Assembly (NCBI GenBank): GCA_965234725.1
Contig: CBDDUX010000014.1
Coordinates: 1 to 64,000, forward strand
Direction of reading: 5' to 3'
Origin: Thermoplasmatota archaeon
GTDB lineage: Archaea; Thermoplasmatota; Penumbrarchaeia; Penumbrarchaeales; Penumbrarchaeaceae
Length of the DNA: 64,000 nucleotides
A program made the translations under genes and the position numbers. Numbering within the stretch: position 1 is the stretch's first letter; every line of letters starts with the position of its first letter. Below are positions 48,731 to 52,819 of the stretch, piece after piece. The notes under the pieces were generated by a model. That model searched no databases. It was not told where the DNA came from and saw nothing but the letters and a program-made list of their open reading frames with translations.

Positions 48731-51217
48731 GTGGGGTTGAAGGATCATGGACTCACGGCCCAGGAAGGGATATTGCTTCACCTGCTTGACTTCAACAGGT
48801 ACAGAGATGATGATATCCTCCCGGAATCCGTTACTCAGCCAGGGATAGCAAGAATTCTGGATACCAAAAGGAGCTACATCTCATTTGTCCTTTCACAGAT
48901 GCTGAAGAGAAAAATGATAACTTTCAAACTCAGCAGGGTCGAAGGAGGGAGGAGGAAAAAGAAGGTATATTTCCTTGATGATGAAGGACTATCAGCTTCC
49001 AGGGAGATAAGGACCCTTCTTTCCAGGGAGAATATTTCCTGCAGGAGGGGAGGAAAGGAGTTCCGTGGTGATCTTGAGGATGTCTCCAAAGCTACTGGAC
49101 TTTCCCTTGTTTCCCTTACAGTCATCACAGATCCGGAAAGAACGGTCGATATCGATCAATGGTTCACAGAGAGGACCTCGATCAATAATAGTTACAAGTC
49201 TCCCCAGGGTCCTCCCTTCTCAGAGAACTTCACTGGGAGGTTAGAGGAGATATCGGCTATCCACTCATGGATCAGAAGCAGGTCCGGTCTGGCACTGGTA
49301 AAAGGTATTGCGGGTACCGGGAAGACCTCACTGGTGGGTAAAGTTATTGCGAAATGTCAGCAACCAGATCTTTCGTTTCTCTATCTTACCGTGTGTCCTC
49401 CGGGAGATGGATCCACCTTGATCAATGATCTGGCTATCCGGATGGATCGGATCGGAAGGTCGTCATTATCAAATCTTCTGAAGGAAAAAGGTTCCATTAC
49501 CCTGTCTGAGCTTGAAAGTAACCTTGAGCAGGAATCATCAAGGTCACCATTTCTACTTATCTTGGATGATGTCCACAATCTCACTACGATCAATAAAGAA
49601 AGCCGGATACTGGACGTGCTCCTGAAGATCGCTGATGAAAATTTAAAGGTCCTTCTGATTTCCAGAGAATCCATAGATGTGGATCCCAGGTCCATTCTTG
49701 GACCTACACCCCCTGTTCATATTGAAGTGCGTGGTCTGGAAAAGAATGATGTGATGACCTTGTTCGAGAACGCGGGAATGGATTTCAGAGATAATCTTTT
49801 CGAGCTAACCGCCGGACATCCACTCTATGTCAATCTGCTGATCCATTACACCTGTAATGAAAGACCATTGGAAGCCCGCAGGAGTATCAGGGCTTTCATA
49901 AGGAAGGAGGTACTGGATTGCTTGAACAGGACAGAAAGGGATATGTTGGACATATTTTCCCTTCTACGTTCTCCGATTTCACGGGAGGATCTGTTCGACA
50001 TGGATGCAGGTGATCTTATGATATCCGAGGCAGGGTTCCAGAGCTTGATGGGAAACGGTATCTTGCAGGGGGATGAACGTGAATTGTCCGTACATCAGCT
50101 GATCGGAGAAATCCTTGTTGAGTTGATGCCACGGGCAAGGGGGATCCAGATCCAGAGGGTGATCTCGGAACATTATAGAGAGCTGATCGACCTCGAACAT
50201 GGAATGGACATGTCCGTACCTGAGAGGATCAATTTCCTAAGGGAATACATGCACCATCTATGGGCATGCGGATCCCTTGGTGAGAGATTATCCGCCCTTT
50301 CCGATCTTGGAGAGGAGATGATGAGCAGGTCCCAGACCGATGACCTTGAGAAGTATACAGAAGAGATCCTTGGAAGGATCGACCGTTCTAGTGAGATGGA
50401 TGCACTGGACCCATCCTTAATCACTCGTATCATGATCTTCAATGGGTGGTGTCTATCAGTAAAAGGTGATTGGGAGGGTGCTTTGAAGATATACAACAAA
50501 GCCCGTGAAAAAGCTGACAGGATAGGTGATAGAGATCTTGTGGGAAGATGCCTCAATGCAATAGGTACAATTTACCTAAGAAGAGGTGAACCGGAGAAAG
50601 CCCAAGACCTGATATCCTCTTCCATCGAGATGATGGAAGACAGGTGCAGCCTCTGCAAGGCAAGGTCCAATCTTGCCGTAGTTCATTGGATGATCGGAAA
50701 CCTTGACAATGCTCTGGAAGAGGTTGACAGGTCAATGGACCTCGCCATGTTCCTGGATGATGCCATGGGTGTATCCAGAGGTTTGATCAACAAAGGGATC
50801 ATACTTGCCCAGATGGATGATCTTGAAGGTTCAAGGTCAGCCTATGAGAGAGCTCTTGCAATATGTGAAAGGGAGGCTTTTTCCCATACTCTATCCATCG
50901 TACATGATAACCTGGGAGAAATCCATAGAGAAAATGGTGATAATGATAGATCCCAGATACATTTCCAAAAGAGCCTGGAACTTGCAAGGGGACTAGGGTT
51001 CAAATGGCAGATCGCAGAGGCAACCAGGAACCTTGCATCCCTTGAATCCGAAGGACCTGGAAGGATCGGCCTTTTCATGGATGCTATCGGGATATTCAGG
51101 GACCTTGGAGATCTTCAAGAAGTTGAAAGAACGGAAAAGATGATGAAAGGTATTCCCTCAGTGAAAAGAAAATCGGAAAAAGGGGGGAATGATATTGATA
51201 AGAATTTTCATCGATGA
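48731..51217 (+). CDS. wHTH, STAND-type P-loop NTPase and TPR repeat protein
   Basis: N-terminal wHTH (TQPGIA..RRKKKVYFL), FTGRLEE, Walker A GIAGTGKT, Walker B LLILDD, AGHPL, C-terminal TPRs. Confidence 0.88.
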   Translation: MGLKDHGLTAQEGILLHLLDFNRYRDDDILPESVTQPGIARILDTKRSYISFVLSQMLKRKMITFKLSRVEGGRRKKKVYFLDDEGLSASREIRTLLSRENISCRRGGKEFRGDLEDVSKATGLSLVSLTVITDPERTVDIDQWFTERTSINNSYKSPQGPPFSENFTGRLEEISAIHSWIRSRSGLALVKGIAGTGKTSLVGKVIAKCQQPDLSFLYLTVCPPGDGSTLINDLAIRMDRIGRSSLSNLLKEKGSITLSELESNLEQESSRSPFLLILDDVHNLTTINKESRILDVLLKIADENLKVLLISRESIDVDPRSILGPTPPVHIEVRGLEKNDVMTLFENAGMDFRDNLFELTAGHPLYVNLLIHYTCNERPLEARRSIRAFIRKEVLDCLNRTERDMLDIFSLLRSPISREDLFDMDAGDLMISEAGFQSLMGNGILQGDERELSVHQLIGEILVELMPRARGIQIQRVISEHYRELIDLEHGMDMSVPERINFLREYMHHLWACGSLGERLSALSDLGEEMMSRSQTDDLEKYTEEILGRIDRSSEMDALDPSLITRIMIFNGWCLSVKGDWEGALKIYNKAREKADRIGDRDLVGRCLNAIGTIYLRRGEPEKAQDLISSSIEMMEDRCSLCKARSNLAVVHWMIGNLDNALEEVDRSMDLAMFLDDAMGVSRGLINKGIILAQMDDLEGSRSAYERALAICEREAFSHTLSIVHDNLGEIHRENGDNDRSQIHFQKSLELARGLGFKWQIAEATRNLASLESEGPGRIGLFMDAIGIFRDLGDLQEVERTEKMMKGIPSVKRKSEKGGNDIDKNFHR

Positions 51218-51235
51218 GAGGAGTAACTAGTGAAA

Positions 51236-51586
51236 ACAAAGATGGTGTGAGGGCTGTGACCTTAGAGTTGTACTAAAATCATCGGTAATCCAAACTCTAA
51301 GGTCAAGATGAAAAACGGTCAGAATCACCTATCATCATTTTTCATCGAGTGTTAACAATTTAGAGCACCATTTTTCGTATAGTTTTAAAATTGACGAGAG
51401 AAAAATGGTGCGAGGGCTGTGACCTTAGAGTTGTTGTTCAATTGACGATGATCCAAACTCTAAGGTTTAGACCAAAAACGGTTAACATTTTAGTATCATC
51501 ATTTTTGGTCGCAATTAATCATTTTCAAGCACCATTTTCTGTATCAATTTAAAATTGACGAGAGAAAAATGGTGCGAGGGCTGTGA
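51236..51586. repeat. Two tandem ~164-bp structured repeats, each beginning with a copy of the tRNA-Leu 3' end
   Basis: ATGGTG(C/T)GAGGGCTGTGA at 51242, 51405 and 51569 (the last is the tRNA itself). Conserved inverted repeats lie inside each unit. Confidence 0.9.
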
Positions 51587-51656
51587 TTTGAACACAGGAA
51601 CCACTAAGGACTAGACCCTCAATCTAGCGCCGTTGACCAAGCTGAGCTACCCTCGC
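51570..51656 (-). tRNA. tRNA-Leu(GAG) with encoded CCA
   Basis: GCGAGGG/CCCTCGC acceptor stem, CTAGA-TTGAGGG-TCTAG anticodon arm, long variable arm, CTGTG-TTCAAAT-CACAG T arm, ACCA end. Position after rpoD matches other archaea. Confidence 0.96.
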
Positions 51657-51891
51657 AATAGTTTGGTGGTCACGACTAGAGGCAGTCGGGGTTCAGGGCG
51701 GATGCATGTGATCGTGAAGTGACCGCCACAGCTTGGTCAACGGCCCGGGAACTTGTTCCCGGATATGACCAAGTTGGGCTACCGAAGGTGTCCATTCCGT
51801 GAACGCTTTGACCCGTGGTCAAAGAGTTCTGAGCTACCCTCGCAATTGTTTTTGGTGGTCACGACTTGAGGCAGTCGGGTTCGGGCGGATG
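51642..51891. repeat. Direct repeat (~63 bp, period 187) of the tRNA 5' end plus leader, enclosing inverted and decoy tRNA D-arm copies
   Basis: CTGAGCTACCCTCGCAAT..TTTGGTGGTCACGACT.GAGGCAGTCGGG at 51642-51704 and 51829-51891. Confidence 0.88.
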
Positions 51892-51943
51892 AAATTTGTC
51901 CGGAGGTAAGATACCTCCGGTCGGCAGAAAGTCCATTGAATAT

Positions 51944-52819
51944 TTAAGCTTCATCAAGTCCTGATATCTCCTCTCTCAGTTCCTCGTAGAAATCAGAGAG
52001 GTAATTCAGTGCATGATTGAGGGCATCCTTCGCAGTGATGGCGCCATCAGTTTCGAAATTGAATACGAATTTATTTTCCTCATGGGATAACTCAACGATC
52101 TTCTTCTCAGATCCATCGAGAGCATCCAGAATGGGGGATTCGTAATAGGACGGGTCCTTATCTTCAAGGGGTTTAAGGTCCTTGACAACTATCTTCCCCT
52201 TTTCGATCCCAAGGACCCCTTCTGGGAAGACCTTGATTATGGCCTCAACATCATCGATCCTCACATCGTTATTGATCACGAGCTTTGGGTAGTTCATGTA
52301 GCCACAGATGGTAACCGGCTGCCATTTCGTATGGGTCTTTCCTCTTCCCATGACCGCTGTTGCATAGATCAGCAGGGCCTGTTTCTCCTTGAGTTTGACA
52401 ATAGGGATGAGTTCCTCTTTGATCCTCAGGCTCATATCGCCAAGGGGTTGAAGGTCCCCGGAGTAAACTGTACACGGTCCTTTCTTGTTCATCACATAGA
52501 TGATGGTGCAGTGAGGGCAGCCAGAGCCACCACATTCACATTTGTCCCTGAAGGTATAATTTTCAAGATCGGTAGGAATGGGGACCATGCTTAGCCTGTG
52601 GGCGATCATCTCATCAAAAAGAGCAGAATTGGAATCATACTCGTTTCCTTCTTCATCTCTGATCGGTCCCATATGGAACTCCACTTCATCTATTGCCATT
52701 TTTGGGACCTCGGATACGAGAGTCCTCCTGATTGTATTGACCACATCAGGTCTCACCTGATCCACAACGAACGAGCATTTCGTATCGGTGAGTTCCCTTA
52801 CCTCAAGCTTCATCCTCAC
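51944..52819 (-). CDS. rpoD: DNA-directed RNA polymerase subunit D (Rpo3)
   Basis: NTIRRTLVSEVPKMAI, NSALFDEMIAHRLSMVPI, CECxxxxCxxC loop, IPIVKL, KWQP, FETDG. Confidence 0.96.
   Translation of the reverse strand: MRMKLEVRELTDTKCSFVVDQVRPDVVNTIRRTLVSEVPKMAIDEVEFHMGPIRDEEGNEYDSNSALFDEMIAHRLSMVPIPTDLENYTFRDKCECGGSGCPHCTIIYVMNKKGPCTVYSGDLQPLGDMSLRIKEELIPIVKLKEKQALLIYATAVMGRGKTHTKWQPVTICGYMNYPKLVINNDVRIDDVEAIIKVFPEGVLGIEKGKIVVKDLKPLEDKDPSYYESPILDALDGSEKKIVELSHEENKFVFNFETDGAITAKDALNHALNYLSDFYEELREEISGLDEA

Follow-up and report, generated by a model that had tools for sequence, protein, structure and literature searches.

Why should a transfer RNA (tRNA) gene be preceded by a second copy of its own 5' end and by a perfect antisense copy of its D arm? 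The question is raised by the tRNA-Leu(GAG) gene of a Thermoplasmatota archaeon (family Penumbrarchaeaceae; assembly GCA_965234725.1, contig CBDDUX010000014.1), which is the sole tRNA gene in the window, as we call the whole stretch of 64,000 nucleotides (nt) that was analysed. The gene lies on the minus strand, and therefore its 5' side is the side of higher coordinates; there, a spacer of 287 nt separates it from rpoD. The original prediction had proposed that alternative folding within this spacer could gate the maturation of the tRNA, and had held an antisense RNA or a single-stranded DNA element to be equally plausible. Our analysis indicates that the spacer contains a unit that is a real, conserved, family-wide element, apparently undescribed so far. 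We found no description of such units in the literature searched, supplementary tables aside. Throughout the text, coordinates are window positions, C14 is the contig bearing the window, G-numbers denote the genomes compared (G000 being the source genome itself) and L-numbers denote loci. The family comparison covered 24 genomes of the family and 13 genomes from eight other families of the class.

The unit upstream of tRNA-Leu(GAG)

Read 5' to 3' on the tRNA strand, the unit consists of leader copy 1, a spare copy of tRNA nt 1-15, an insert that we call module X, spare tRNA nt 16-23, a capping hairpin, a stretch antisense to the D arm (the anti-D stretch), a linker and leader copy 2. These parts are listed below in that order, between the hairpin next to rpoD and the tRNA gene itself, each with the evidence for it and, where compared, its identity to the corresponding segment of G004, a genome of the same genus.

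51898 to 51924, minus strand: hairpin CCGGAGGTA/TACCTCCGG, starting 20 nt past the rpoD stop (sequence and fold)
51844 to 51897, minus strand: leader copy 1 (direct repeats D3/D4; 81% identical)
51829 to 51843, minus strand: spare copy of tRNA nt 1-15 (direct repeat D4; 93% identical)
51775 to 51828, minus strand: module X, 54 nt, two covarying hairpins joined by a conserved CGTTCACGGAA (covariance model R1; 93% identical)
51763 to 51774, minus strand: spare tRNA nt 16-23 (CTTGGTCA) plus 3 nt, part of the decoy at 51766-51783 (direct repeat D5; 100% identical)
51745 to 51762, minus strand: capping hairpin CCGGGAAC/GTTCCCGG (sequence and fold; 100% identical)
51729 to 51744, minus strand: anti-D stretch, the antisense of tRNA nt 13-28 (inverted repeat I1, 16/16; 15/16, or 94%, in G004)
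51705 to 51728, minus strand: linker, containing GGCGGTCAC, which is able to pair with GTGACCACC in leader copy 2 (sequence and folds; 96% identical)
51657 to 51704, minus strand: leader copy 2, which carries the CGACT/AGTCG hairpin and adjoins the real tRNA (direct repeats D3/D4; 87% identical)
51570 to 51656, minus strand: tRNA-Leu(GAG), intact, with CCA encoded (ARAGORN; 100% identical)

The repeats and hairpins that the original prediction had pointed out are all present. The inverted repeat between 51629-51644 and 51729-51744 is perfect over its 16 nt. The decoy, which had been described as a near copy of the same tRNA segment, resembles 51634-51651 at 89% (16/18). The repeat of the leader together with the first 15 nt of the tRNA consists of two blocks parted by a 2-nt indel, one of 23 nt at 96% with a spacing of 187 and the other of 29 nt at 97% with a spacing of 189. 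The exact 15-mer formed by tRNA nt 1-15 has one further occurrence in the genome, at C14:51829. As for the hairpins, CTTTGACC/GGTCAAAG has 13-nt arms at 92%, while the capping hairpin, CGACT/AGTCG and the hairpin next to rpoD can be read in the sequence and appear in minimum-energy folds. The pairing of the linker with leader copy 2 contains one mismatch, which is C.A on the minus strand and corresponds to G.U on the plus strand. A leader motif, CATCCGCC followed at a distance by ACCACC, is found again in leaders from other genera. Module X is placed, in the manner of an intron, exactly between nt 15 and 16 (after G15) of the spare tRNA 5' copy; R1 matches it over 51774-51828 with 72.6 bits, and its covariation is seen in alignment A5.

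Chance was rejected as the origin of these copies: with up to 3 mismatches allowed, the 16-mer occurs 3 times in the window compared with 0.20 expected, and a count of 3 was reached in none of 100 shuffles. A coding role was rejected as well, as the stop-to-stop frames in 13 units share neither frame nor strand. Both strands of the 287-nt spacer were folded and compared with shuffles; each folds more stably than these, the z-score being -3.82 on the tRNA-sense strand and -3.48 on the plus strand. These z-scores do not show the G-U bias in favour of the plus strand that had been claimed, and the family-wide counts given further below lend it only partial support. In an Rfam cmscan of window positions 50500-52800 and 8 related loci at E up to 1, no family, RtT included, was found over any unit; the search listed just tRNAs and chance matches under the gathering score. 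Likewise, with respect to box C/D guide RNA, no small nucleolar RNA family matches the unit, and no boxes are readable beside the antisense stretch.

Distribution and conservation in the family

The spacer between rpoD and the tRNA is single-copy in the source genome. Around the tRNA, 722 of 731 nt match G004 at 84%, and 295 nt, unit included, match G010, from another genus, at 79%. As the unit is present in relatives, a scar private to the source genome was rejected. In 17 of the 20 related loci examined, the gene upstream of tRNA-Leu(GAG) is rpoD; the remaining three have no rpoD match, two of them being cut by contig ends. The spacer varies widely in length: three genomes of genus g5 have just 28-31 nt and G019 has 73 nt, whereas eleven family genomes have 209-423 nt, comprising one to three tandem units built on this plan.

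The original prediction had tied the patchwork to the rpoD read-through precursor. We found nothing specific to rpoD in it: the same design stands before other Leu and Ser tRNAs. The search for similar patchworks at other tRNAs, which had been proposed as a check, found them upstream of Leu and Ser tRNAs, each built from that tRNA's own 5' end and its own antisense. In the source genome, units precede Leu(TAA), Leu(CAG, decayed), Ser(CGA, three in tandem), Ser(TGA) and Ser(GCT, one of each variant described below); in relatives, they occur upstream of Leu(CAG), Leu(TAA), Ser(TGA) and Ser(GCT). The number of units upstream of the family's Leu and Ser tRNAs varies from 0 to 3. Leu and Ser are the class II, or long-arm, tRNAs. 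Within 450 nt upstream in G000, direct copies (9-15 nt exact) together with inverted copies (10-16 nt exact) of the tRNA's own 5' end were found for 5 of 7 class II tRNAs and for 0 of 33 class I tRNAs. The units come in two variants. One lacks X and folds into a three-way junction, in which the closing helix is made of tRNA nt 15-24 and their antisense; the other carries module X. Some units additionally carry an antisense of the acceptor strand (in G011, in G003 and at Leu-TAA of G000), which the window unit does not.

Module X was searched for with R1, at a cut-off of E<=0.01 in the family and E<=1e-4 in other families. It was found in 16 of the 24 family genomes and in none of the 13 genomes from the eight other families of the class, many of which are incomplete. 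The family search returned 40 sense matches, of which 37 could be examined. Among these, 32 are followed on the same strand, at a distance of 22-338 nt, by a Leu or Ser tRNA; of the other five, four adjoin contig ends and one stands before a Ser(GCT) gene that a run of N disrupts. G000 has 7 matches, and all of them precede an uninterrupted Leu or Ser tRNA. The tRNA types with X upstream are Leu-GAG, Leu-CAG, Leu-TAA, Ser-CGA, Ser-TGA and Ser-GCT.

An unconserved spacer would have been in keeping with neutral template-switch duplications. The comparison among relatives showed the opposite, in that the unit is far more conserved than four-fold sites. Between G000 and G004, the four-fold sites of rpoD are 65% identical (n=113), whereas the segments of the unit are 93-100% identical, which argues that the unit is under selection, and as judged from these alignments the selection is purifying. 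Outside the unit core, the identity is 81% and 87% in the two leader copies, 75% in the units on the 3' side of the tRNA and 43% in sequence farther out. In G012 and G014, which belong to different genera, four-fold sites are 45% identical (n=96) and the X-less unit is 88% identical; in G008 and G013, the corresponding values are 56% for four-fold sites and 79% for the 200 nt upstream of Leu(CAG). The predicted structures also show compensatory changes. In the X-less variant, both partners have changed in 11 of 29 predicted pairs with the pairing preserved, and the same is true of several pairs of X.

Copies of X within one genome are just ~60-75% alike. The mean identity of X is the same, 0.57, whether copies at one tRNA type are compared between genomes or copies that differ in both tRNA type and genome; the copies do not cluster by tRNA type, and one pair that crosses both genus and tRNA is 95% identical. 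Taken together, the conservation of X at the same locus and its divergence within a genome argue against a neutral scar and against a recent burst. The pattern of identities leaves room for occasional exchange of X between loci. The two leader copies share letters specific to their genome, GACTGCC in both copies of G000 and GACAGCC in both copies of G004, and these shared letters point to later gene conversion.

Pairing with the D arm and the surroundings of the gene

The anti-D stretch had been said to have two mutually exclusive partners, and folding bears this out: it pairs with the decoy when the spacer is folded alone, and with the real tRNA nt 13-28 when the whole precursor is folded. 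In the minimum-energy fold of the 374-nt precursor, the pairing with the real tRNA has a mean P=0.996. The precursor fold reaches -139.6 kcal/mol, compared with -126.5 kcal/mol for leader and tRNA folded apart, a gain of 13 kcal/mol. With a leader of 200 nt and a threshold of mean P>=0.5, pairing between leader and D arm was predicted for 25 of 30 unit-bearing Leu/Ser loci and for 0 of 5 controls without a unit. In 23 of the 25 loci that yielded an anti-D stretch, it agrees with the real tRNA at more positions than with the spare copy; this count is biased, since the real tRNA served to locate the stretch and since the spare copy is broken by X. According to these models, the putative switch by alternative folding is thermodynamically plausible and general across the family, and the unit may set when the tRNA precursor folds or is processed.

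The transcription data consisted of contigs only, from four sequencing runs of RNA and DNA. RNA-library contigs from two libraries of different studies run from rpoD past its stop (51853-52201 and 51883-52101) and cross the hairpin next to rpoD; another, 51541-51686, covers the tRNA and ~30 nt on each side. These contigs are compatible with read-through from rpoD and prove nothing for the unit. A DNA run of a related population covers the unit over 51662-51842, with 7 differences.

Copies of tRNA ends also occur on the 3' side of tRNA genes. At the locus itself they form the following feature.

51243 to 51569, minus strand: two tandem units of 163-164 nt after the tRNA (direct repeats D1/D2; 75% identical to G004)

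Each of the two terminates with the final 17 nt of the tRNA, repeated at 51406-51422 and 51243-51260, and holds an antisense of the tRNA 3' end and trailer (GCACCATTTTTC / GAAAAATGGTGC). In G000, 13 tRNAs, tRNA-Leu(GAG) included, have downstream copies of their own 3' ends. Several 3' units form three-way junctions closed by antisense and direct copies of the T loop. Downstream of tRNA-Arg(GCG) on contig C20 of the same genome (25415-25491), there are at least four near-identical tandem units of 143 nt, each ending in the tRNA's last 22 nt, and this array looks like a recent amplification. Exact 15-nt copies of tRNA-Ala/tRNA-Val 3' ends and of a tRNA-Cys 5' end lie far from the respective tRNA genes at C28:12854, C38:74041, C89:19450 and C67:11586 of G000, and may be the far borders of larger integrated elements.

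The source assembly comprises 3.54 Mb in 114 contigs with 45% G+C, and 40 tRNAs were called in it by ARAGORN without intron search. On the minus strand of the window, the genes for ribosomal proteins S13, S4 and S11 are followed by that for RNA polymerase subunit D.

51944 to 52819, minus strand: rpoD/Rpo3, archaeal RNA polymerase subunit D (Pfam PF01193 and PF01000), the last protein gene in the S13-S4-S11-rpoD row

In many archaea a row of ribosomal-protein genes comes after rpoD; the row expected there is not present at the tRNA-Leu(GAG) locus. Instead, a gene for a STAND-type NTPase of 828 amino acids with TPR repeats (48731-51217, plus strand) converges on the locus. Two details of the Rfam search concern these genes. 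The C/D-box family sR46 has a weak match inside rpoD (52589-52660, minus strand; 22.4 bits against a gathering score of 50, E=0.022), probably by chance. In addition, tRNA-Leu(GAG) was unlisted at 51570-51656 and at loci L015, L016 and L023, despite the ARAGORN call; other Leu/Ser tRNAs were listed by the same search, and the missing entry may be a filter effect.

Origin and role of the unit

Judged from its sequence, module X is intron-like. Like transposing introns, it forms a sequence family common to different tRNA types. It does not interrupt a functional tRNA within the family, as a bulge-helix-bulge intron would, and precedes uninterrupted Leu/Ser tRNAs. No canonical bulge-helix-bulge (two 3-nt bulges and a 4-bp helix) was seen at the borders of X by reading, no dedicated search having been run. 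In the spacer fold, the border of X lies inside a helix, G15 pairing with a C after the first hairpin. We also looked for X by loose motif scans of public genome contigs and viral contigs, which gave at least 120 hits each; 80 loci of each set were re-scored with R1. The hits were mostly chance matches; the re-scoring left weak matches of at most 29 bits, and just L077 and L129 were informative. In G061, a 1.1-Mb genome of an uncultured archaeon, a repeated module with the same end motifs is marked by 24 weak matches to R1 (at E up to 1 within this genome). Several of these X-like copies sit in the T loops or D loops of tRNA-like sequence, and some lie outside tRNA genes. At L077 of this genome (~663-1000), a tRNA gene is interrupted by X-like modules in the D loop and in the T loop, and has an insert in the anticodon region as well. 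Upon removal of the two inserts in silico, ARAGORN called a tRNA in 129 of 192 boundary combinations and in none without editing, with an unstable anticodon assignment. L129, in a Micrarchaeota genome, has one further X-like insert.

Four known systems are instructive for comparison. The archaeal tRNA-Trp intron guides methylation of its own exons; similarly, a part of the precursor that does not belong to the mature tRNA is here complementary to it. Unlike in that guide, the complementarity is continuous over 13-22 nt, it lies in the leader and not in an intron, and C/D boxes are not readable. RtT RNA (RF00391) is released from the tyrT transcript of E. coli; the 178-bp tandem repeats of that locus adjoin the tRNA gene, contain a copy of its end and are co-transcribed with it. 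The units described here are likewise tandem repeats beside a tRNA gene with a copy of that tRNA's end, but RtT is bacterial and on the 3' side, and the units have no Rfam match. We know of no RtT counterpart to the antisense arm or to the inserted module X. RtT is nevertheless a precedent for a tRNA-linked repeat RNA, according to the account in bioRxiv 10.1101/2024.07.17.603846.

For tRNA-Thr(GGU) of Caldiarchaeum subterraneum, PMC3293823 describes a 5' fragment upstream of the gene and an extra intron at 24/25, and proposes as the cause that an element integrated at the 5' terminus and that recombination ensued. Going by that description, the two cases are alike in that an intervening sequence in the D-arm region differs between two copies (at 24/25 there, at 15/16 or ~24/25 here). 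They differ in that the copies are 1.8 kb apart there, with a recombinase gene between them, whereas ~125 nt and no gene lie between them here. In addition, the present units include an inverted tRNA copy, occur at six Leu/Ser tRNA types and appear to be under purifying selection. In Thermoproteales, tRNA intron families common to several tRNA types are reported in bioRxiv 10.64898/2026.10.13.758758. Compared with the transposing introns as presented in that source, X is similarly a short sequence family spread over tRNA types, with X-like copies at tRNA loop positions in another archaeon; unlike them, X is in the family never inside a working tRNA, being found just in the spare 5' copy.

The reading that we tentatively prefer, at somewhat less than even confidence, is that the unit is an intron-bearing 5' fragment that was displaced by recombination and is now kept as a leader module competing for the D arm. 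As to origin, a tRNA gene bearing X would have undergone recombination or integration in its 5' part, the old 5' fragment being displaced, and an intact, insert-free tRNA gene would have been rebuilt in place, following the model for Caldiarchaeum tRNA-Thr. As to role, the unit would be transcribed within a long pre-tRNA leader; the antisense stretch would first pair with the adjacent decoy, which is made earlier, and would then move to the thermodynamically better real D arm. The effect would be to delay or time the folding, modification or end-processing of Leu/Ser precursors.

A number of observations weigh against this reading. Nearest-neighbour folding leaves out the tertiary structure and modification of the tRNA, the order of transcription and kinetics. 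No RNA-library contig covers 51690-51850, and the contigs say nothing on transcription, strand or ends. The unit is missing at the tRNA-Leu(GAG) locus in 4 family genomes and is therefore not essential there. We know of no reason for class II tRNAs alone to need such a leader. Between the repeats (~125 nt) there is no integrase gene or remnant of one, and no open frame is conserved among 13 units. Finally, there are the strand statistics. In RNAfold predictions for 190 nt upstream of 30 unit loci, the folds of the antisense strand are stabler in 26; in the same folds, G.U pairs make up 4.7% on the tRNA-sense strand and 9.9% on the opposite strand, whereas the tRNAs of the genome, folded by RNAfold, show the reverse pattern (11% vs 5.7%). 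The stems of X are almost free of G.U on the tRNA-sense strand, with 2 of 548 scored pairs.

It is on these strand statistics that the strongest rival draws, a rival that we regard as unlikely. It holds that the unit acts on the opposite strand, as antisense RNA or single-stranded DNA, and belongs to a single family of hairpin elements found at both ends of tRNA genes and invariably directed away from the gene; it would be a self-propagating insertion that copies its target's end, rather than a leader device. Units on the 5' side favour the antisense strand as stated, while units on the 3' side fold better on the tRNA-sense strand in 9 of 13, which hints that 5' and 3' units both point away from the tRNA gene. 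The stems are almost purely Watson-Crick: in 31 distinct copies of X, the stem cells on the tRNA-sense strand comprise 504 Watson-Crick, 2 G.U, 17 A.C and 25 other, and as 9 of the 17 A.C cells fall in one column pair that is probably a mis-registered bulge, the ratio of A.C to G.U is 8:2 without that column. A short-word BLAST comparison of X-less 5' cores with 3' units gave 12 inverted matches out of 20, including all those of at least 15 nt, one of which, 16 nt long, spans a hairpin junction. The tandem arrays and the variable number of units also speak for this view. Nevertheless, copies at the same locus are 93-96% identical across species and ~60-75% alike within a genome, the opposite of what a recently active repeat would show. 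The E-values of the inverted similarity are weak (0.04 to 6e-4). In a census of G.U versus A.C with a home-made stem finder, the flanks in G000 gave 4 vs 6, 17 vs 26 and 13 vs 21, and neither the 97 upstream stems (19 G.U vs 33 A.C) nor the 40 downstream stems (10 vs 13) showed a significant strand bias; the strand difference could come from composition. Neither a transposase nor an outward promoter was identified. A miniature inverted-repeat transposable element was rejected separately, since the arms copy the local tRNA and have no shared terminus, the spacer is single-copy and the X copies are just ~60-75% alike.

Less probable still, in our judgement, is a functionless footprint, that is, partial duplications, direct and inverted, left by integration, excision or template switching, whose likeness to the neighbouring tRNA is kept up by gene conversion. 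Archaeal integrative elements are classically recognised by direct repeats of a tRNA terminus, by the account in PMC3293823, and the locus has such a repeat: the leader and nt 1-15 recur 187-189 nt apart, the repeat extending into the leader. The genome-specific letters common to both leader copies fit gene conversion, and the unit is missing or multiplied in relatives. The neighbours of the repeats are rpoD and the STAND NTPase, not an integrase, and the ~125 nt between the repeats contain no gene remnant. What strongly weakens the footprint is the contrast between the unit and the four-fold sites in G000 and G004, with similar contrasts in two more genome pairs; the hairpins that stay paired through compensatory changes and the strict association with class II tRNAs speak against it too. 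Three features, namely the antisense copy, the restriction to Leu/Ser and the strong conservation, do not fit a mere footprint.

Very unlikely, finally, is an RtT-like small RNA gene, cut out of the long leader by RNase P at the spare and real 5' ends and acting in trans, for example as a decoy or sponge for a factor handling Leu/Ser tRNAs: each unit does open with a faithful leader and tRNA 5' end that offer the same cut site repeatedly, the acceptor-strand antisense of some units (G011, G003 and Leu-TAA of G000) gives an acceptor-like helix, the unit is conserved in sequence beyond structure alone and RtT itself provides a precedent as described in bioRxiv 10.1101/2024.07.17.603846, but at E up to 1 no Rfam family was matched, RtT included, the window unit has no acceptor-strand antisense and no RNA ends were observed in the RNA-library contigs.

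There is also a wider view, which we put forward as possible though doubtful. The ends of archaeal tRNA genes may bear small structured modules of a class not described before, whose arms, one direct and the other antisense, are copies tailored to the end of the neighbouring tRNA. The 5' version seen in this family would then be an antisense 'pro-sequence', kept by selection, to which the D arm of Leu/Ser pre-tRNAs stays bound up to the point at which a decoy or a step of processing frees it. Partial tRNA copies beside tRNA genes are usually dismissed as integration scars. If the pro-sequence reading is true, there would be a new layer of control over tRNA maturation, built from a domesticated, intron-like mobile module. 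If the unit acts on the precursor, it would represent a new kind of archaeal tRNA maturation control; if it is selfish, it would represent a novel means by which an insertion fits itself to its target. The unit connects duplications of tRNA 5' fragments with an intron-like module by which, in another archaeon, a tRNA gene is interrupted, and it bears on how archaeal tRNA introns arrive.

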